Of a stretch of DNA of 64,000 nt, positions 5,083 to 25,121 are shown one piece after another. The DNA comes from a phage: sequence record PZ452591.1. One strand, written 5' to 3'. Every line of letters begins with the position of its first letter. The stretch's first letter is position 1. The notes beneath the pieces were generated by a model. That model had not been told where the DNA came from and made no database searches. It saw nothing but the letters and a program-made list of their open reading frames with translations. The translations under genes were made by a program, and so were the position numbers.

Positions 5083-6765
5083 TTAAACCATTACAGTAAA
5101 TCGACCAACTTTCTTCATTTGAAGATGCTGACCATATTCTTGCGGGTCATGGTCTTTATGCGAAATTATAAAAACATTAGTGTTTTTCATTGAATTTATA
5201 ATATTAGCTACACCTTTAATACCTTCGGCATCAAATGACCCATCAAACACTTCATCGAGTATTAATGTACTAATACTAACACCAGATACAATAGAAGCAA
5301 TATCACGCCAAGTAAATAAAAGAGCAATATCAATTCTTGCTTTTTCACCTTCACTAAATGAAGCATAACTAAAATCTTCGCGACCACGGGATTTAATTGT
5401 CTCATTAAATTCTTCATCTAATGTAAACACATAATCCGCTTCCATTATTTTAAGATAATGGTTAATCTGCTTATTAAATAATGGAATGTACTTTTTAATA
5501 ATAGCACCTTTAATGCCAGAATCTTTGAGCATATCAGTCAAAATTCCTCGGTGGTATTTTTCCATTACTAAATTAGTTTTTGTCTTAACAATTTTATCAA
5601 GTTCTTCTTGAAGCAGTGCTATTTCATCAGCATGGTCAATAAACTCAGAAGATGCTTTTTCTATAGCCGCTTTAACTTTTTTAGCTTTATCTACCGTTGT
5701 GATTAGAGATTGCTTTTTATTGCGAATATCATTTGCCAACGACTGCTGGGTTTTAATATTATCTCGGTATTCATCAACAAGAACTTTTAAATTATCACGA
5801 TGTGTTGAAAGCTGTTCAAACGAATGCGTGCATTCAGAAACTTTATCTTTAATTTTAGAAACAACTTTATCACCGGAACTCAATTGTGACAAACAGGTTG
5901 GACATAATCCACCTTCGTGATACATATTAATGACTTTATTATATGAGTCAATTTTTGATTTAATTAAAACTGCTTCTTGACCGATTTTATTAAATGCATC
6001 AGTCGGGTCTTCATCTAAAACAATATTAACTAATCTTTCATTAGCTTCTTCTATTTCCGATTTTAGCGTTCTAGCTTCTTTTGCCAAATCATCATACATA
6101 TTTTGCAGACGAGTAAGGTTGTCACCCGTTAATTTTTTCTGGCGTTCAACGTTATCATTATATATTTTAATTTGTTGGATAATACTATCTTTTTTAACAT
6201 CAAGCACTTGGTTTTGTGAATTTAATTCGCGTATTAGTGCTTTATTAAGCTTATCCATTTCAGCTAATGTTCCTACCTCGAGCAGGTCTTCCACAAGCTT
6301 TCTTCGCGCAGGGGTCGACAAACCCATGAAAGGGGTATACCCTGCTGTACCAAGGACAACAATCTGCTTGAAACTGGCATATGACATTCCGATAAGCTGT
6401 TCAAATTCTGCTTGGAAATCTTTACTGCTGGCAGATTCATTAAGACGTGTACCGTTAACGGTGATTTCGAAAACGTTCGGTTTTTGTCCTCTTTTGATAT
6501 AGTACTTTTTCTCATCATATTCCATCCACAGTTCAACTAAAAGTTCTTTCTTATTTGTGCTGTTTATTAATTGACCTTTCTTTACATCACGAAATGGCTT
6601 GCCAAAAAGCCCAAATGTGATGGCTTCTAACATAGTAGACTTACCACCGCCATTTCGGCCAGTAATAAGAGTTTTTTGAACCTTATCTAATTGAATGTCA
6701 ATAGGATTTCCACCTACTGACATTATATTTTGATACCTAACTCGGTTTAGTTTAAAATTCTTCAC
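5083..6765 (-). CDS. 46: recombination nuclease subunit gp46 (Rad50/SbcC-like ATPase)
   Basis: 560 aa, Walker A GRNGGGKST, long central coiled coil, C-terminal signature/D-loop region; stop overlaps upstream gene. Confidence 0.9.
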   Translation of the reverse strand: MKNFKLNRVRYQNIMSVGGNPIDIQLDKVQKTLITGRNGGGKSTMLEAITFGLFGKPFRDVKKGQLINSTNKKELLVELWMEYDEKKYYIKRGQKPNVFEITVNGTRLNESASSKDFQAEFEQLIGMSYASFKQIVVLGTAGYTPFMGLSTPARRKLVEDLLEVGTLAEMDKLNKALIRELNSQNQVLDVKKDSIIQQIKIYNDNVERQKKLTGDNLTRLQNMYDDLAKEARTLKSEIEEANERLVNIVLDEDPTDAFNKIGQEAVLIKSKIDSYNKVINMYHEGGLCPTCLSQLSSGDKVVSKIKDKVSECTHSFEQLSTHRDNLKVLVDEYRDNIKTQQSLANDIRNKKQSLITTVDKAKKVKAAIEKASSEFIDHADEIALLQEELDKIVKTKTNLVMEKYHRGILTDMLKDSGIKGAIIKKYIPLFNKQINHYLKIMEADYVFTLDEEFNETIKSRGREDFSYASFSEGEKARIDIALLFTWRDIASIVSGVSISTLILDEVFDGSFDAEGIKGVANIINSMKNTNVFIISHKDHDPQEYGQHLQMKKVGRFTVMV

Positions 6766-7025
6766 AAAAGATTCCTTTTAATGTATCTTTTAGACCATTC
6801 TATCATATCATCATAATCTAAAAAGTATTCATCAAATTCAGCCATGCAAACAACACCTTGTGCTGTTTTTGATGTAATATAAATTATTCCAACATATCTA
6901 GAATCTTCTTCGATATAATCAATATTTGCTATGAATTCATCATTAATGTCAAATGTCGAAAACTTCACAGTATGCATCCTTAATACAAGATACAGCCATA
7001 TCTCGTAATGATTTAGGTGTGTCAT
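6762..7025 (-). CDS. hypothetical protein (46.1 position)
   Basis: 87-aa ORF; stop overlaps gene 46 start (ATGA); start uncertain (alternative M17 at 6977). Confidence 0.5.
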   Translation of the reverse strand: MTHLNHYEIWLYLVLRMHTVKFSTFDINDEFIANIDYIEEDSRYVGIIYITSKTAQGVVCMAEFDEYFLDYDDMIEWSKRYIKRNLL

Positions 7026-7212
7026 TATCTAAAATGTTGAAGTTAAAAGATACAGCCCAGTCAGTGCAGACTGTAACCTTTTTAATACAATTATCTTCAA
7101 CTTCTAGCGGTTCAAACCAGTATTCAATAATTTCTTTATGACCAATATCATCTTTCACTTCACATTTAAAATGCTGACTCATCATAACATTTTTAAATTC
7201 ATCAAAAGTCAT
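6949..7212 (-). CDS. hypothetical protein (46.2 position)
   Basis: 87-aa ORF coupled to gene 47 stop. Confidence 0.5.
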   Translation of the reverse strand: MTFDEFKNVMMSQHFKCEVKDDIGHKEIIEYWFEPLEVEDNCIKKVTVCTDWAVSFNFNILDNDTPKSLRDMAVSCIKDAYCEVFDI

Positions 7213-8228
7213 TGTGTTGCCTCTACATATAGCTGATTTGCATATTGAATAAGTGCTTCACGATCAGAATCAGTGATGTCTGGAATTGCATTAATGTATT
7301 CTTCCATCAACGTCTGAAGCGATTGAACTTCAACTTCTTCACTGTCATCTGACTCGACAGAGTTATCAATCTTTGACACAACTCGTAATGAATGCACAAC
7401 TTTTTCTAGTTCAGATTCGAACTTCGTCAGATTTTTGTCTACTTCAGTTACTATAACACATACTGATAGATTTGTAAAATCTTTATAGTCAATTTTTCCT
7501 TTAAATGGATAATGAATTCTACGATGCCAGGTAGTATTGTTTGGAATAAATTCCATTCGTTCTGTTTCTGTATCAAACATCCAGAACCCACGAGGGTCAT
7601 TCTCGTCACCTGCAGTTAGTGTCCATGGTGTCCCAATATATCTGACGTTTGCAGCCTCAGAAATAGTATGGAAGTGACCAGACCACACTTCTTTATAAGT
7701 CTTAAGGAAATCAGGTTCAAGACCGTGAGATTTCATTCCTTTATAAAAATAAAATCCATTCAGTTCCCAGTGACCGACACAAAAAGAAGCAGATGAAGTT
7801 TTGATGTGCTCAAGAATTTCACCAGTATTTTCTTCGCACATCCAAGGAATCAAATCAATCAAACATCCGTCAAAATCTACTGTAGTAGGCTTATCATATA
7901 CTTTAACATTAGGATATTTAGCCAAAAGCTCAGTAGAGGCATTTGGATGCATTACATTTTTATAGTGGAGATCGTGATTTCCTACAATAGTATGTAATGT
8001 AATTCCAGCATCATCAAGCGTTTGAACTATTTCACGGGCGAACTCCATAGTTTTGTGTGTGATTGCTTTTCGCACATCAAAAATATCACCATATTGAATC
8101 CAGGTAGTAATTCCATTTTTCTTAGAATATTCTATTGCTTGTTTAATTCCATCAATTTGAATACCGCGAATCCACTCATCATCAGCTTTAACGCCTAAAT
8201 GCCAATCACCTAAATTTAAAATTTTCAT
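7209..8228 (-). CDS. 47: recombination nuclease subunit gp47 (Mre11/SbcD-like phosphoesterase)
   Basis: 339 aa, motifs GDWHLG, GNHD, GHWE typical of calcineurin-like nucleases. Confidence 0.9.
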   Translation of the reverse strand: MKILNLGDWHLGVKADDEWIRGIQIDGIKQAIEYSKKNGITTWIQYGDIFDVRKAITHKTMEFAREIVQTLDDAGITLHTIVGNHDLHYKNVMHPNASTELLAKYPNVKVYDKPTTVDFDGCLIDLIPWMCEENTGEILEHIKTSSASFCVGHWELNGFYFYKGMKSHGLEPDFLKTYKEVWSGHFHTISEAANVRYIGTPWTLTAGDENDPRGFWMFDTETERMEFIPNNTTWHRRIHYPFKGKIDYKDFTNLSVCVIVTEVDKNLTKFESELEKVVHSLRVVSKIDNSVESDDSEEVEVQSLQTLMEEYINAIPDITDSDREALIQYANQLYVEATQ

Positions 8229-8365
8229 ATATCAAGAACCGTCATTGAAATGCAAAATAAAATTATTGAAATAAATCCATCTGGAGTACTAAAGAACCCA
8301 ATCCAACATGCTCTAGTGAATAGATAAAATGCAAGAAAAAGTATCACATATCCAAGAAATATCAT
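8225..8365 (-). CDS. small hydrophobic protein (46 aa), not in ORF track
   Basis: Hand translation MIFLGYVILFLAFYLFTRACWIGFF...; stop overlaps gene 47 ATG (ATGA coupling). Confidence 0.3.
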   Translation of the reverse strand: MIFLGYVILFLAFYLFTRACWIGFFSTPDGFISIILFCISMTVLDI

Positions 8366-8391
8366 TATATCAAACTCCGTATAAAGCTAAA

Positions 8392-8403
8392 GGGCCGAAG
8401 CCC
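8392..8403 (-). terminator. UUCG-tetraloop hairpin
   Basis: GGGC-UUCG-GCCC on minus strand directly after the a-gt stop. Confidence 0.35.
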
Positions 8404-8404
8404 T

Positions 8405-9607
8405 TTATTTTGTAATAATGTCAAACTGTTCTTTAAAGCAGAAGCTTGAATCTTGATGCTGATACAAAAATTCATATGCTTTTTCTCGCTCACGGTCATA
8501 AAGAGCTCGGTCAGATGACAGTTCTTTAATACGTTCAAATGTTGATTCCATGTCATTTTCATCAAACCAAATGATACCGCTATCATGCGAGGTCAAAGGA
8601 GTATTATCAACACGGAATTTCAAATTATCACCCGTTGATTTCCAGAAAACAGGAATTGTACCGCAAGCACCTAATTCAAGATGAGTATATTCGAGTGAGC
8701 GTTGTAAGTATTTCTGGTTAAGTTTACTCAACTGATATCCAAAGCCAGATTTACTCATTCGTTCAAGCATTTCACTATTAATATAACAATCTAGGATTTG
8801 TGCCGGTTGATTCGGCGCGAGATTCATTTTATCAATCTCACGATTACCGTAATATTCATACGGAATACCTTTTTCCTTAATTGCAATAAAAGCAGGGGAA
8901 CGTTCAAGACCTTCCATTACAGTGGATTTACCAGCAGGTTTTAAGAATTTTTCGTGAAAATCAAACATCTGGTAAAAACCTTTCCATGTAGTCGTACGAC
9001 CAATCCAACGGTTGATATTCATGTTAATTTCAGAAACATCTTTCCAATAAGTTGACCGAACCTTCGCAATATCCATAGGAGGCTGAAAATTATATACTGT
9101 TGGTGCTTCTTCAATATCATCAAACAGAGAAACAGTTTCTGGATACCATTCTTTCATCAGAACTTTATTAAAATCGCCATTATCAGAATGACTAAAAATA
9201 ACATCAGCTCGACGAACAGTTTCTTCTAATCCCAAATTTCGACGCAAAGAAAGAACAGAATGATCATGCTGATAAACTACAACACGAATAGAAGGTTTAA
9301 TATTATCTAAAAGTTTTTTATAGTTATTAATCGTGGCTTCTTGAACAGAAGTAGCAGGAACAGAATTAATAATTAGAATATCACAATCATTAATCAGTTT
9401 AAGTGCTTTATCGTATTCTTTAGCTAAAATAACTGGAATTGAAAATGATTTGTGGTCATGAGAACTTGTACGAGTAAATGATTTATCTTTAGCATAAACC
9501 AAAGTTACTTCATGACCATTTTTAATAAACCAATCACGCTGCTCAAGAGAAAATTTAGTTACACCGCAACCTTCAAGACCCCGAGCCATAAAAATACATA
9601 CTTTCAT
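8405..9607 (-). CDS. a-gt: DNA alpha-glucosyltransferase
   Basis: 400 aa, same length and position as T4 a-gt; glycosyltransferase-like. Confidence 0.8.
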   Translation of the reverse strand: MKVCIFMARGLEGCGVTKFSLEQRDWFIKNGHEVTLVYAKDKSFTRTSSHDHKSFSIPVILAKEYDKALKLINDCDILIINSVPATSVQEATINNYKKLLDNIKPSIRVVVYQHDHSVLSLRRNLGLEETVRRADVIFSHSDNGDFNKVLMKEWYPETVSLFDDIEEAPTVYNFQPPMDIAKVRSTYWKDVSEINMNINRWIGRTTTWKGFYQMFDFHEKFLKPAGKSTVMEGLERSPAFIAIKEKGIPYEYYGNREIDKMNLAPNQPAQILDCYINSEMLERMSKSGFGYQLSKLNQKYLQRSLEYTHLELGACGTIPVFWKSTGDNLKFRVDNTPLTSHDSGIIWFDENDMESTFERIKELSSDRALYDREREKAYEFLYQHQDSSFCFKEQFDIITK

Positions 9608-11981: not shown

Positions 11982-12197
11982 TTAAATTTCCCAATTGCCA
12001 TTTTCATCAATAAATTTAATCCAGTCATTTACTGACCACTTAGTTGTATCGCCTTTTGGAGCAACATTTAAAGTGTATAGCCCTTGCTTAAAAAGCATGC
12101 GTTTGATATTCATATTTTCCTCAGCTGTAACGATAACACTCGTTTGATTTACGTTTAGCAACTCGTTGAGAAGTATTATAATCAAAATCATCGTCAA
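11982..12197 (-). CDS. hypothetical protein (start uncertain)
   Basis: 71-aa ORF; hydrophobic N-terminus may be artefact, alternative start at M29. Confidence 0.3.
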   Translation of the reverse strand: MTMILIIILLNELLNVNQTSVIVTAEENMNIKRMLFKQGLYTLNVAPKGDTTKWSVNDWIKFIDENGNWEI

Positions 12198-18074: not shown

Positions 18075-18332
18075 TTATTCCTTAATTCCTAGTACTTGTT
18101 TAAAAGTCTCGTCGTAATCAAGACTTTGGCCCGTTTGTTCTTTATGTTTGTATATAATATCACTTACTTCTGATAGCATATTTTTATATGAACGAGTTAA
18201 AGCAGATTTAAGCACGCTGTATCTATCAGGAAATTTACCGTGTTCATTATAATAAGCTATTGCTAATTCACGGACTGCCTTTTCGGCAGTCTCCATATAT
18301 TCTTTACGCTTGGTCATTTTCTTCTCGGTCAA
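18075..18332 (-). CDS. hypothetical protein
   Basis: 85-aa ORF. Confidence 0.5.
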
Positions 18333-18618
18333 ATCGGTGTTTACAATGGCGACATTTATAACGAAGATTATTAGTCTGCCAATGGACTAATTGCACCTGT
18401 TCAGTTCCACATTCAGGGCAATTAGGAACGTTTTTAGAAGCACGTTCGCGGCGTTCAACCATGACCATTACAGAATCCCAATTAATAGGGCTGCTATAAT
18501 CATCACAACCATGAATCTTTCCACGCATTTCCAGATCGTCTTCTTCACCAGCCATAATAATTTTAATTAGACTAGAATTACTTGAAGCTGCAATGTCTTC
18601 TAATAGACGCTTTTTCAT
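18304..18618 (-). CDS. zinc-ribbon protein
   Basis: 104 aa with CPECG...CRHCKH four-Cys motif. Confidence 0.5.
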
Positions 18619-19544
18619 TTCAATACCTCAATAGCATTACGTAAACCATTTGCTTTTGCATTAAGAGCTTTTAACAATTTGGTGTGTTCTTCAATTTGGG
18701 CTTCAACTTCAATCAAACGAGCATTGAGATATTCACGTTCTTCGCTCAAGTTATCAACCTTTTCTACTTTAGGTTCTTTTACAACTGGCTTATACGTATT
18801 AGGGTTCTTCAGTTTAATTAGAATGCGTGAACTGTATAACATTGAACCATTATCTTCGGTTTCATCATACATTTCTACTACGTCCATGATTTTTAACATC
18901 ATGCGAAGTTTATAAGACAACGAACGAATAGTTTTGTTGTGCTTATTAATTTCTCTAGCTGTCATGGTGCCGAGATTACGTGAGTAATAATAAGGAACCT
19001 GGATATTAATTAATACTGATGAACCACCTGGCTTGTGTGTTACTTCATCAGCAATAACCCAGTCCTTAACATGAACTGTATTTGTACGGTCATCGCCCAT
19101 GGTAAACAGTTTGCGAGCATGCTTAAAAAGCATATTCACTTGAGTATTGAATTGACAAGCAAATTTATCAGCAAATTTAGTTTCAGGAATGGTAGATAAC
19201 CAATCAGCCAAATGGGTCTTTTTAACATCGTTAATAATAGTAAATTCAACCAAATCGGTTATAGATGTCGCAGATTTAATGAAGCTCGGCTTCATAAAGT
19301 TTTTAATGTTATCGCGAGCTACAGTAGAAGATAACATACGAGAACGTTTAAACCATTCAAGCAAATTGCCTAACGAATGAGAATAAGCGTTTTGAGTATC
19401 TTTACAGATATGATTTTCCTGGCCAACATATTGAAGGAAATCACGAAGAATATTATTGATTACTGCTCTGTGCCCGATCTGATAATTACGGTGTTTAGTA
19501 ATAAGACTGTCAAAATAATCAATATAATGTTTACGAGTTTTCAT
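18615..19544 (-). CDS. coiled-coil protein, paralog family member 1
   Basis: 309 aa; C-terminal heptad-rich ~40 aa; shares central motif with the next three genes. Confidence 0.6.
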   Translation of the reverse strand: MKTRKHYIDYFDSLITKHRNYQIGHRAVINNILRDFLQYVGQENHICKDTQNAYSHSLGNLLEWFKRSRMLSSTVARDNIKNFMKPSFIKSATSITDLVEFTIINDVKKTHLADWLSTIPETKFADKFACQFNTQVNMLFKHARKLFTMGDDRTNTVHVKDWVIADEVTHKPGGSSVLINIQVPYYYSRNLGTMTAREINKHNKTIRSLSYKLRMMLKIMDVVEMYDETEDNGSMLYSSRILIKLKNPNTYKPVVKEPKVEKVDNLSEEREYLNARLIEVEAQIEEHTKLLKALNAKANGLRNAIEVLK

Positions 19545-19596
19545 GTTCTTCTCACTTGGTTAATGGTTTATACTCCGAGCCATCCTTGGCTTTAAA

Positions 19597-20628
19597 TTAC
19601 TTAATTAACTGTAAAGCTTGTTCAAGACGATCCAGGCGATTAACAGATTCTTCCCAAATCCTTTTAGCCTGCTCATATTCTTTCTGTGCTTTATTAGAAA
19701 TTTCTAGAACTTCTTTATAAGCTTTTTCTAGTGCAATAACTTCTGGACGAATTTCTATCGGTTCAGGTGAATCGTCAAGACATTCCATTAGTTCCTCAAG
19801 GGTAGTTTCTTCTTTAGGAGTATTCACAATTTCATCACATTTTTGTTGGTAAATTTCTTTATCAGTCGGTGAGTACGCACACTTTACTTCACGAAGACTA
19901 ACTACAATTTTATATCCTTCCCAACCGCATATATTCTTAAAAGGATAAGTATGAATATTTTCTACTGTTTCCATACAAAGTAATGCAGTCTCTAACTGAC
20001 GAGTTATATCACTAGCAATTGAGAAAAATTTATTAATGTTCTTTTGATTAGCTTCTGGTGTAAAAAATTCATAATTCACAAAAATAGCTACTTTATTTTT
20101 ATCAAGTTCATATTCTTTTATGATAATCATATCAGAAGCCAAAGGATGAATTTGACGATAATCGCCATAGCATAATTTAGAAGCTGATTTCAAAATTTGC
20201 TTCTTGAAAAGTCTAAAATTACTAACCCAACGACGAGTAAAAATATTCTCAGGGTCTTCTTTAATATTAAGATGATAAGAATTAACATCACCGAACCAAT
20301 TGTATCCTACTACATCTTTAGTTCGTTTAATTTCTTTCCCAAATTTACTAAGAATATCTTGATTAACTAAATATGAAAGAAGACGAGACCCTTTAAAGGT
20401 TTCCTTAATATCATCTTTATCTGCACGACTAGAAATTTTATGAACTTCATGAATAAATTTGCTGGAAGAAACAATACTTGCATCAGTATTATTGAGCCAT
20501 TGATTGATAATGGAAATAACGCTATTCTGACTAGACATAGGTTTAACTTTATCATCAATAACGCTATTGAATGATTTGATATATTCGTTACGAGTCATAT
20601 TAATCTCCTCAGTAGAAAGTAAGAACAT
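19597..20628 (-). CDS. coiled-coil protein, paralog family member 2
   Basis: 343 aa; motif FRLFKKQILKSASKL aligns with FRKQLKQILSTASRL of 20656-21675. Confidence 0.6.
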   Translation of the reverse strand: MFLLSTEEINMTRNEYIKSFNSVIDDKVKPMSSQNSVISIINQWLNNTDASIVSSSKFIHEVHKISSRADKDDIKETFKGSRLLSYLVNQDILSKFGKEIKRTKDVVGYNWFGDVNSYHLNIKEDPENIFTRRWVSNFRLFKKQILKSASKLCYGDYRQIHPLASDMIIIKEYELDKNKVAIFVNYEFFTPEANQKNINKFFSIASDITRQLETALLCMETVENIHTYPFKNICGWEGYKIVVSLREVKCAYSPTDKEIYQQKCDEIVNTPKEETTLEELMECLDDSPEPIEIRPEVIALEKAYKEVLEISNKAQKEYEQAKRIWEESVNRLDRLEQALQLIK

Positions 20629-20655
20629 TATACCACATCCTTGTGGCGAAGTAAA

Positions 20656-21675
20656 CTAGTTTAGTGCATTTAGTGCATTATTCAGTTTAGAACGTTGCTT
20701 TGCCAGATTTTGAACCCTTGACTGAGCTTGTTCTAACACCTTTTCAGCTTCTAGCACTTCATTGGTCGCTTTAACGAGTTCATCATCTACTGCCTTGATA
20801 GACTTCTCAATCGCATCCGCGTGCCATTTTTCAACGGGTTTAAGACTCGGATTTTCAACAGGAAGAAAATTCACTTTATTGAATTTCCATGCATCTTTAT
20901 TACCTGAACTATACATCCAAAATTTAGGATCGTTTGATGAGTAATTAGATAAATTTAAGTTATCTTGCACTTCTTGCTTTTTCTCTTGCGGGACTTCGTC
21001 CTTTCTCAAAAAATCGTATTTAAATGAAACGACCATATCAAGTTCATATGTTGTTGTATGTTCCCAATTTCGCTCAAAACGAGGTAAAATCTTAGAATGA
21101 ACAGCGGCAACAACATCCATATACTTAAATGCTTCTGTCAACTGCGATTTAAGGCATTCACAAATTGAAAGAGAATTTTTTGTATTAGGTTTAAAGCTAA
21201 TTCGCGCAGTTCTATTATTTTCTTTTAATGGTCTTACTTCCATCTGAAGAGTATAACCATCAAATTTCAGGTTCTTTAAGTTAATGTCAGAACCTTTTAA
21301 TCGACTAGCCGTCGACAAAATTTGCTTTAATTGTTTACGGAATAGAGCAATAAATCTCCATTCAATACGATAATGATTTGGATTGAAAAATCCAGATGAT
21401 AAATCGACCTTACTCTGACCAACACCTTGAACAAATAGAGGATTTTTATAATCAATAGTTTTACAGAAATCGGTGAGCTGCTCACGAGCAGTCATTTGTG
21501 TAATATACCCCGCTTTACTAAAATGACGTAATAATTCACTGCTATTTAGATATTTAAAGTGAATAGCACGATTAACTTTATCAGGGTCTAAATTATTTTC
21601 ACACAAAAATGTCATAACATTACGAGTATCGCTGCCAGTACGAACCATATCTTCAATTTGAGAACGAGTTTTCAT
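20656..21675 (-). CDS. coiled-coil protein, paralog family member 3
   Basis: 339 aa; C-terminal coiled coil. Confidence 0.6.
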   Translation of the reverse strand: MKTRSQIEDMVRTGSDTRNVMTFLCENNLDPDKVNRAIHFKYLNSSELLRHFSKAGYITQMTAREQLTDFCKTIDYKNPLFVQGVGQSKVDLSSGFFNPNHYRIEWRFIALFRKQLKQILSTASRLKGSDINLKNLKFDGYTLQMEVRPLKENNRTARISFKPNTKNSLSICECLKSQLTEAFKYMDVVAAVHSKILPRFERNWEHTTTYELDMVVSFKYDFLRKDEVPQEKKQEVQDNLNLSNYSSNDPKFWMYSSGNKDAWKFNKVNFLPVENPSLKPVEKWHADAIEKSIKAVDDELVKATNEVLEAEKVLEQAQSRVQNLAKQRSKLNNALNALN

Positions 21676-21683
21676 GGTGTTCC

Positions 21684-22595
21684 TTAAGATTTAAGTAAAT
21701 CAACAATTTTAATTAACTTTTCACGCTCAGATTTAGCTTTACTACTCAGTCCAGATAGTCTGAAAATTTCATCATCATATTGTTGAATAGAAATATTCAG
21801 CTCTTCAATCTGTTTATTAAAATAATCAATTTGTTCAGAATGTTTTTCGTTACTACGAAATGGTACAGGTTTTGTAGGCAATTTAGTTGAATTGGATTCA
21901 TCCGGGCGATAAATTAAAATACAACTTGAACCAATCGGACATTTAGCACCAGATGAATATTCTAACGTTCCAGCTTCTTTTAAAACTTCAAAAGCTAAAC
22001 AGAGATGATGCCCCATATTAACATAATCAGTAGAGCGAGCTCTGACGTAATAATCATCTCCACGAGTGCTAAATTTAAAGCATTTAAGGTCTTCTGTATT
22101 ATTAGTTTTAAAAATCATTTGTTTATCTAGACCTTTAGCCAATCGAGCGCCTAATGCTAATAATCGTCGTTGATTTTCCCACAAATCCGCAATCATTTGG
22201 TCAAATGATAATTTCGGCATTAGTCGACCATAAAGGTCATATCCTTTATTATAATTGCGAAGGATTTCACTCGCGTTAATACGAGACAATGCTCCAATTT
22301 TATTAAGGGCTTTCATAATACGATTAGATAAACTCATTCCAGATCCGTTTGTTCGCTGCAAATGTTTATCTAATCCAAACCCAATATCAACTTTAAATTT
22401 ATCTAAAATTTCAGCATGAACATCTCTGTCAATAACATTCAAATCCAAAGTTGTGTTAAATCTATGAAAAAATTTATCTGGCTCTCCACGACGAAATACA
22501 GTCCATTCATTCATCATTTTTTTATTAACTAAAGATTTAATTACTGCATTGACATTATTAATTACGACTGACATATTTTCCTCACTCAATTTCAA
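21684..22595 (-). CDS. coiled-coil protein, paralog family member 4
   Basis: 303 aa; C-terminal coiled coil, related central segment. Confidence 0.55.
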   Translation of the reverse strand: MKLSEENMSVVINNVNAVIKSLVNKKMMNEWTVFRRGEPDKFFHRFNTTLDLNVIDRDVHAEILDKFKVDIGFGLDKHLQRTNGSGMSLSNRIMKALNKIGALSRINASEILRNYNKGYDLYGRLMPKLSFDQMIADLWENQRRLLALGARLAKGLDKQMIFKTNNTEDLKCFKFSTRGDDYYVRARSTDYVNMGHHLCLAFEVLKEAGTLEYSSGAKCPIGSSCILIYRPDESNSTKLPTKPVPFRSNEKHSEQIDYFNKQIEELNISIQQYDDEIFRLSGLSSKAKSEREKLIKIVDLLKS

Positions 22596-23044: not shown

Positions 23045-23572
23045 TTATGCGAGTACCGTCTTTAACCGTTCTTCAAACTTCCGAAGAGTATTTTGGCGTT
23101 CAGCTCTTTGCTTTTTGTAAGTTTCAATACGCTCTGAAATGAGAGTGTATCGTTCATTTACTGATTCTTTCATAAAATCAGGAATTTCACGAGAAGCTTT
23201 AATCTCGTCAAATTTATCAATAACAGCTTGCTCTTCAGCAATTAAGTTATCATACATTAAAATATCTTTCTTGATGAACTCAATATCTTCTTGAGTTACG
23301 CGAGATAATTTAGATGCTTTATCCTTTTTGTACTGTTCGTTAGTATCACGAGACCAGTGTAATGTACGATTTTTATTCGTATTTTTGTAAATTTCTACAA
23401 TACCGATCTCATCAATAATAACGATCCAATTCCAACGGGATTTGTAAATTTGTCCTCCATCAACAGTGATTTCACCTCCGATTGAGATGTCATTAAAGAA
23501 CTTGCTTTGTGCTTCAGATTTAAATTTACCATCGTTGTAATTTACCAGGTTGAAAATATCTTTAGCGTTCAT
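23045..23572 (-). CDS. hypothetical protein
   Basis: Track ORF extended through the promoter; ATG at 23572 with SD GGAGGAA gives 175 aa. Confidence 0.5.
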   Translation of the reverse strand: MNAKDIFNLVNYNDGKFKSEAQSKFFNDISIGGEITVDGGQIYKSRWNWIVIIDEIGIVEIYKNTNKNRTLHWSRDTNEQYKKDKASKLSRVTQEDIEFIKKDILMYDNLIAEEQAVIDKFDEIKASREIPDFMKESVNERYTLISERIETYKKQRAERQNTLRKFEERLKTVLA

Positions 23573-23600
23573 TTTGTGTTCCTCCGTAGTTGATAGTTGT

Positions 23601-23630
23601 ATAGTACCACAGAGGAACAGTCTTGTAAAC
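23601..23630 (-). promoter_or_regulatory. early (sigma70-type) promoter
   Basis: Minus strand GTTTACA-17 nt-TGGTACTAT; conserved 18-mer TGGTACTATACAACTATC shared with three other sites. Confidence 0.5.
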
Positions 23631-23632
23631 AA

Positions 23633-25039: not shown

Positions 25040-25069
25040 ATAGTACCATAAAGCTTTATGCTTGTAAAC
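25040..25069 (-). promoter_or_regulatory. early promoter upstream of AAA+ ATPase gene
   Basis: GTTTACA-17 nt-TGGTACTAT on minus strand, just downstream of a strong terminator. Confidence 0.55.
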
Positions 25070-25101
25070 CGTTTTGTGAAAAAAAAAATTTAAAATAAAA
25101 A

Positions 25102-25119
25102 GGGAGCCCGAAGGCTCCC
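25102..25119 (-). terminator. intrinsic terminator (UUCG-tetraloop hairpin plus U-run)
   Basis: Minus strand GGGAGCC-UUCG-GGCUCCC followed by UUUUUAUUUUAAAUUUUUUUUU. Confidence 0.7.
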
Positions 25120-25121
25120 TA

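Follow-up and report, generated by a model that had tools for sequence, protein, structure and literature searches.

Do four neighboring genes that each end in a coiled coil descend from a single gene, and if so, what do the copies do? The question is posed by a locus in a 64,000-nucleotide stretch of phage DNA (sequence record PZ452591.1; hereafter the window), in which four consecutive minus-strand open reading frames (ORFs) form a tandem array just upstream of nrdC. The phage is T4-like, a Tequatrovirus, and the ORFs are orthologous to T4 nrdC.3, nrdC.4, nrdC.5, and nrdC.6 (members 1 to 4, respectively). The four genes are true, very old tandem paralogues. Moreover, nrdC.5 is an established counter-defense gene in T4. 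Our overall reading, held with moderate confidence, is that the four arose from one Straboviridae gene by ancient tandem duplication and encode accessory host-range proteins, which neutralize bacterial defense proteins.

The 3,981-base array region is 96-97% identical in nucleotide sequence to many Tequatrovirus genomes, and the genes around it include those for endonuclease VII, pin, and NrdC thioredoxin. For the window, the identity to Tequatrovirus genomes is put at 96.8%. Spacing within the array is tight, with gaps of 8-57 nt. The ORFs lie exactly where an earlier note, made from the sequence alone, had placed them (Table 1). The lengths given there (309, 343, 339, and 303 aa) hold for the open frames; for members 2 and 4 the probable coding sequences are shorter, so that the likely true lengths are 309, 333, 339, and 296 aa. 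Identity to the corresponding T4 protein is 62%, 92%, 93%, and 97% for members 1 to 4.

Homology among the four proteins

BLASTP relates members 1 and 2 (23% over 270 aa, E=3e-6) and gives nothing significant for any other pair. For each family, a profile was built from database homologues together with the syntenic genes of 17 related loci. Profile comparison with hhalign joins members 1 and 2 (probability 98%, E=1e-13); members 1 and 3 (84.5%, E=7e-6, over 233 columns that include the tail); and members 2 and 3 (77%, E=2e-5). Direct alignments of member 4 with each of the other three are weak (1-7%, E=0.005-0.06). Expressed as scores, members 1 and 2 align with member 3 at 45-47 and member 4 aligns at 21-27; reversed-profile nulls reach at most 21.

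Member 4 is joined to the others by intermediates. When the nrdC.6 profile was run exhaustively with HMMER against 1.84 billion representative proteins, it returned only 14, three of which (P0233, P0234, and P0236) are full-length distant relatives of metagenomic origin. These bridging proteins combine nrdC.5-type motifs (ARxxLxDF and HYAxxIExSI) with nrdC.6-type motifs (NxRRxxLxLxARLxKG...MxFK and EVFRLS). Their joint profile matches nrdC.6 with E=1e-15, nrdC.5 with E=5e-11 (245 columns, reaching the last residue), and nrdC.4 with E=3.5e-5. An iterative hidden Markov model (HMM) search of 555 ORFs, seeded with the three bridging proteins, collected nrdC.5 and nrdC.6 first, nrdC.4 in round 3, and nrdC.3 in round 4. 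It converged on the four array ORFs and their orthologues, and took in no other window ORF of at least 80 aa.

Predicted structures agree. Fold comparison covers members 2 and 4, whose AlphaFold models have predicted local distance difference test (pLDDT) values of 83 for nrdC.4 and 78 for nrdC.6. Both models show the same order of elements: a helical amino-terminal part; a helix pair with the motif L-x-x-A-(S/A)-(R/K)-L at its end; a beta-beta-alpha-beta-beta unit; a disordered linker; and a long terminal helix. The conserved motifs fall on equivalent helices. Searched against BFVD, the two models share six distant hits among Straboviridae proteins (probability 1.0, E=9e-4 to 3e-7), all encoded by T4-like phages that infect Enterobacter, Pectobacterium, Acinetobacter, and Yersinia.

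Because the profile, bridging, iterative-search, and AlphaFold/BFVD results concur, the four genes are true paralogues, as the earlier note had proposed. Homology of the bodies is evident at profile level in all four, and we propose a Straboviridae-wide nrdC.3-nrdC.6 superfamily. The suggestion that the membership of members 1 and 4 rests mainly on the shared coiled coil is thus set aside, and the outcome named as fatal to the proposal, that profile comparison would leave the four unrelated apart from generic coil composition, did not come out, because bodies and tails are both homologous. The order of relatedness also needs revision. Members 2 and 3, described as clearly related, are homologous (and the motif quoted for them is real, and family-wide), but the closest pair is 1 and 2, followed by 3. 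Member 4 is indeed an outlier, nearest to member 3; member 1, which had been considered only weakly related, belongs to the closest pair.

Other candidates for membership fell away. A supposed fifth member, nrdC.8 (23045-23632), and the further neighbors nrdC.2, nrdC.7, nrdC.9, and nrdC.10 gave hhalign scores of at most 21.5 and stayed outside the iterative search set; 256- and 261-aa neighbors in phages IME523 and PM2 likewise scored at most 21.5. As a separate observation, nrdC.8 has a heptad-rich carboxyl-terminal helix that ranks 3rd among 84 window genes, and unlike the array it is 99-100% conserved among Tequatrovirus.

Architecture

Each protein comprises four parts: an amino-terminal helical region; a conserved alpha/beta core; a linker rich in proline, glutamate, and lysine; and a coiled coil of 48-54 residues. 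The core carries the motifs A-x-x-(Q/E)-L-x-x-F and L-x-x-A-(S/A)-(R/K)-L-x-x-G, and the linker is variable and disordered. The heptad-rich tails that the earlier note had seen in all four proteins are plainly there, each in a single unbroken register with 80-94% hydrophobic residues at heptad positions a and d. By a crude carboxyl-terminal heptad score, array members rank 1st, 2nd, 9th, and 10th among the 84 window genes. In the AlphaFold model of nrdC.4 the terminal helix is 48 residues long. A 23-sequence superfamily alignment that includes single-copy relatives shows conservation of the extreme carboxyl terminus as (K/R)L-x-x-A-(L/I)-x-x-L-(K/N). The member 3 tail is homologous to the tails of the bridging proteins, and the alignment between members 1 and 3 spans the helix as well.

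Isoelectric points (pI) of the bodies lie between 8.6 and 9.6. In three members the body is strongly basic (pI 9.4-9.6, net charge +9 to +12); that of nrdC.4 is mildly so. Sequence searches found no solved structure for any of the four, and PADLOC and NCBIfam scans of the array proteins gave nothing at threshold. Profile matches of nrdC.4 to designed helical repeat proteins were dismissed as compositional.

Database assignments scatter the family. Pfam spreads the array over three families (PF26897, PF23882/DUF7235, and PF26899), and PHROGs places members 1 and 2 in phrog_1435, member 3 in phrog_2351, and member 4 in phrog_2257. The PF23882 model matches member 3 with E=2.1e-123 (412 bits, cut-off 30); its scan of members 1, 2, and 4 gave no match, which makes them remote relatives outside that Pfam family. 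Two annotations found in public records are wrong: the "thioredoxin" label that many GenBank records attach to nrdC.3-nrdC.6, copied from the gene-name prefix; and "tail sheath stabilizer and completion protein" for nrdC.5 in the T6 record, a shifted annotation transfer.

Counter-defense function, known and proposed

Functional evidence comes from T4, in which nrdC.5 counteracts Dsr1, a sirtuin defense that depletes nicotinamide adenine dinucleotide (NAD) (Srikant et al. 2022, PMC9391042). In that study, deletion of host dsr1 restored infection by a T4 deletion mutant; dsr1 on a plasmid shielded strain MG1655 from the T4 mutant; and plasmid-expressed nrdC.5 alone complemented the T4 deletion mutant, restoring plaquing on Dsr1 cells. 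Member 3, which is the orthologue, presumably counteracts Dsr1 too, given its 93% identity to T4 NrdC.5. Members 1, 2, and 4 share NrdC.5's architecture as remote homologues, but are not matched by PF23882 in HMMER and are filed under PF26897, PF26899, phrog_1435, and phrog_2257. Since NrdC.5 defeats Dsr1 and the four proteins are homologous, NrdC.3, NrdC.4, and NrdC.6 are good counter-defense candidates. The earlier note's suggestion of inhibitors directed at defense sensors thus stands for one member, T4 nrdC.5 against Dsr1. In the literature, functional work concerns nrdC.5 only (PMC9391042), with no functional mention of the other three. Searchable literature yielded no paper naming DUF7235, PF26897, or PF26899, and NrdC is absent from the main text of the EVADES anti-defense catalogue preprint.

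How might such proteins work? The coiled coil would oligomerize each protein, and the body together with the variable amino-terminal region would bind the target. A working analogy for NrdC.5 is DSAD1, a small phage protein reported to neutralize the SIR2-domain NADase defense DSR2 by binding it; by the same route, NrdC.5 may block Dsr1 through direct binding. NrdC.3, NrdC.4, and NrdC.6 may have sub-functionalized toward other defense proteins or other Dsr1 variants.

Comparison with other anti-defense genes helps to place the array. The dmd-tifA-adfA island of T4-like phages, directed against toxin-antitoxin systems, likewise consists of small, non-essential early genes, each tuned to one defense, variable, and readily deleted (PMC9391042). 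The island genes are mutually unrelated, whereas nrdC.3-nrdC.6 arose by duplication of one gene. DNA-mimic anti-restriction proteins of the Ocr/Arn type have acidic surfaces, in contrast to the basic array proteins.

Evolution of the array

The gene order nrdC.6-nrdC.5-nrdC.4(-nrdC.3) is conserved across genera, and copy number is not. Four copies are present in Tequatrovirus. Mosigvirus carries three (6-like, 5-like, and 3-like), and so do nine non-Tequatrovirus T4-like loci (6-like, 5-like, and 4-like); Kanagawavirus and Mosugukvirus have a single copy at the syntenic site. Acinetobacter phage Acj61, which belongs to another subfamily, has a tandem pair beside nrdC; HMMER on this pair stayed below significance, and its membership rests on Foldseek and synteny. 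About 32 kb from its two family copies, Acj61 also carries genes annotated as nicotinamide phosphoribosyltransferase and ribose-phosphate pyrophosphokinase (positions 6229-8938 of locus L020), which look like components of an NAD-reconstitution pathway.

Among seven Tequatrovirus arrays, the gene-wide ratio of nonsynonymous to synonymous substitution (dN/dS) is 0.28 for nrdC.3, 0.21 for nrdC.4, 0.22 for nrdC.5, and 0.12 for nrdC.6. Flanking genes (gp49, nrdC, nrdC.1, nrdC.8, nrdC.9, and nrdC.10) give 0.01-0.06, values that those of the array exceed by a factor of 2-28, and pin gives 0.15. Most variation falls near residues 30-60 and within the linker, with conservation of the core and of the last heptads. 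In T4-like records nrdC.3 falls into three allele classes, with identities of at least 90%, of 75-79%, and of 60-62%. Mosigvirus and similar phages carry the 75-79% class, to which the window allele is nearer than to the T4 allele.

Losses and rearrangements are common. Phage ACG-C40 has a natural deletion that joins the nrdC.5 amino terminus to the nrdC.3 carboxyl terminus (positions 5805-6216 of locus L004), and in the metagenomic protein P0056 nrdC.5 is fused in frame to nrdC.3 at a ...VN motif common to both genes. In locus L008, nrdC.4 is split into two ORFs. The T4 reference itself (NC_000866; positions 12067-12130 of locus L001) carries a 1-bp deletion in nrdC.6, GAGCTGAATATT -> GAGCTG-ATATT, in the region equivalent to window positions 21684-21800. 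The resulting frameshift removes the carboxyl-terminal coiled coil, whose sequence is perfectly conserved in another frame; the deletion is either a laboratory-strain mutation or a sequencing error.

Faster protein evolution than in flanking genes, together with common loss, is what dispensable accessory genes under rapid change typically show. Copy expansion from one to four, the allele classes, and frequent loss fit a role as host-range determinants.

Two further observations concern variation at or beside the array. In NrdC.6 of Shigella phage Sf25 (P0121, 378 aa), a stretch of about 82 residues (IRAHSTDYVN...NKQIEEL) that covers the core end and the linker is duplicated in tandem within the protein. 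The adjacent gene nrdC.2 (18304-18618), which shares 4 nt with the end of nrdC.3, shows 53-96% identity among Tequatrovirus with a synonymous divergence (dS) of 0.82, exceeding the variability of the array. The allele classes of nrdC.2 and nrdC.3 do not coincide, which implies recombination breakpoints between the two genes.

Weighing the alternatives

Several observations weigh against the counter-defense reading of the whole array. Experimental function is on record for one member of the four, and its mechanism is unpublished. Gene-wide dN/dS stays well below 1, so that positive selection is not demonstrated; the diversifying selection that the earlier note had suggested reduces to rates above those of the flanks. 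HMMs built on the last 45 residues with one family left out miss the omitted fourth family, so that a tail-only HMM does not cross families. What connects the tails in sequence is the bridging proteins and the short terminal motif alone; the case for their homology therefore lies in their position and in the bridging proteins rather than in strong similarity. The strongly basic bodies of three members would suit nucleic-acid binding too. Finally, promoter matches of the kind found inside the array are no commoner in this region than in shuffled sequence.

What else could the proteins be? One idea starts from the alpha/beta core, which may have a fold like that of tail-terminator or tail-tube proteins: an early decoy would then mimic a late virion protein and occupy a defense sensor without activating it. 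Foldseek lists several uncharacterized phage proteins of 130-150 aa at probability 0.9-0.99, and the related sirtuin defense DSR2 is reported to sense a tail tube protein, a phage protein that binds the sensor being its inhibitor (PMC10981675, PMC11087589). Against this, Dsr1, its trigger included, is described in a 2026 paper in the words "DSR1 remains poorly characterized" (PMC13464706), and the PDB search is based on a single model. Tail terminator and completion proteins (lambda gpU, DUF3168, T5 p142) are, according to solved neck and tail assemblies, ring-forming late virion proteins of 120-280 aa. The array proteins, at about 300-340 aa, have additional helical and coiled-coil parts and 4-15% identity to them; and instead of being essential genes of a late tail module, they are encoded in the early, dispensable nrdC region and are deleted in viable phages. 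We regard the idea as unlikely. Its extension to the family, in which all members are coiled-coil-oligomerized early decoys imitating tail-terminator or tail-tube proteins, one per sensor by tandem duplication, is somewhat less likely again. If true, early decoys would pre-occupy the sensors of late structural proteins: NrdC.5 for Dsr1, and NrdC.3, NrdC.4, and NrdC.6 for other defenses.

Alternatively, the paralogues might assemble through their related coils into one hetero-oligomer with a single function, instead of acting as independent inhibitors. The shared terminal motif in all paralogues and distant relatives, the strict conservation of gene order, and the tight packing of the genes would all suit such a complex. 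But nrdC.5 by itself sufficed for complementation on Dsr1 cells (PMC9391042), copy number among relatives runs from 1 to 4, and there are viable phages lacking nrdC.3-nrdC.5 (ACG-C40), with a split nrdC.4 (L008), or with a tail-less nrdC.6 (the T4 reference). These facts leave the complex very doubtful.

Poorer prospects attend the proposal that the proteins bind nucleic acids, masking DNA or RNA or regulating host or phage transcription, with only an indirect effect on Dsr1. Besides the basic bodies, it can appeal to residues 30-86 of nrdC.3, which weakly resemble the amino-terminal SAM-like domain of tyrosine recombinases (E=0.075 in Pfam and E=0.001 in NCBIfam; both far below cut-off). That integrase-type match occurs in 1 of the 37 members scanned, and for this reason it was treated as noise. 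Moreover, the nrdC.4 body is only mildly basic, no known DNA-binding family appears at threshold, and a basic surface is equally compatible with dimeric coiled-coil inhibitors.

Hardly credible, and already refuted here, is the notion that the four proteins are unrelated and have only generic coiled-coil composition in common: it could point to the single significant BLASTP pair, the weak direct alignments of member 4, and the tail HMMs that miss the omitted family, but the body-body profile matches stand well above nulls, the bridging proteins join member 4 to member 3, the iterative search settles on no window ORFs but these four, and the two predicted topologies agree and share full-length BFVD matches.

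The preferred reading remains that of paralogous host-range proteins directed at bacterial defenses.

Start sites and probable early expression

To judge from sequence, the array sits in the early-gene region, on the early strand, with a putative early-type promoter inside it. In the gap between nrdC.5 and nrdC.4 the sequence reads gTTTACT-17 nt-TGgTATAATg...GAGGAGattaatATG, and a GAGGAG ribosome-binding site precedes the ATG at 20598. The upstream nrdC.4 ATG lies inside the -10 element of this promoter, so that the real start is almost certainly the one at 20598, giving 333 aa as in the T4 annotation. In the AlphaFold model of the long form, residues 1-8 have pLDDT below 50. The nrdC.6 start was set at 22574, matching the starts of its homologues.

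Elsewhere on the minus strand, positions 25040-25120 of the window contain a strong intrinsic terminator (AGGGAGCC-TTCG-GGCTCCCT plus a T-run). Directly after it, upstream of nrdC.10, lies an early-type promoter (TTTACA-17-TACTAT with TG), and a similar one is found at 23601-23629, upstream of nrdC.8.

Table 1. Features of the nrdC.3-nrdC.6 array, in window coordinates
Feature	Position	Strand	Remarks
Member 1, nrdC.3 orthologue (309 aa)	18615..19544	minus	phrog_1435; 62% to T4/T6 allele, 79% to a Mosigvirus allele
Member 1 coiled coil (aa 262-309), end ...LRNAIEVLK	18618..18761	minus	a/d 86% hydrophobic; rank 2nd of 84
Member 2, nrdC.4 orthologue (333 aa probable; open frame 19597-20628, 343 aa)	19597..20598	minus	PF26897
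Member 2 carboxyl-terminal helix (aa 295-343 of 343-aa frame), end ...LEQALQLIK	19600..19746	minus	AlphaFold helix 295-342; heptads
Putative early-type sigma-70 promoter TTTACT-17-TGgTATAAT, then Shine-Dalgarno GAGGAG	20627..20655	minus	nrdC.5/nrdC.4 gap; consensus match alone
Member 3, nrdC.5 orthologue (339 aa)	20656..21675	minus	PF23882/DUF7235
Member 3 coiled coil (aa 286-339), end ...LNNALNALN	20659..20820	minus	a/d 94% hydrophobic over 54 residues; rank 1st of 84
Member 4, nrdC.6 orthologue (296 aa probable; open frame 21684-22595, TTG start, 303 aa)	21684..22574	minus	PF26899
Member 4 carboxyl-terminal helices (aa 244-296 of 296-aa form), end ...LIKIVDLLKS	21687..21845	minus	AlphaFold helices 242-272 and 277-295; heptads

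Outlook

The array is not a new kind of system: a known counter-defense gene is extended to a four-member family and a Straboviridae superfamily, whose unity is not recognized in the searchable literature or in domain databases. No phage has been studied more thoroughly than T4, yet the majority of its early accessory genes are without function. Placing NrdC.5, as the proven anti-Dsr1 member, within one family turns three orphan genes into specific counter-defense candidates, and extends the candidates to relatives in T4-like phages of Escherichia, Klebsiella, Enterobacter, Pectobacterium, Serratia, Yersinia, and Acinetobacter. The common architecture (variable amino-terminal region, conserved core, and obligatory coiled coil) provides a frame for probing how NrdC.5 acts. 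Moreover, host-range determinants matter when therapeutic T4-like phages are chosen or engineered.

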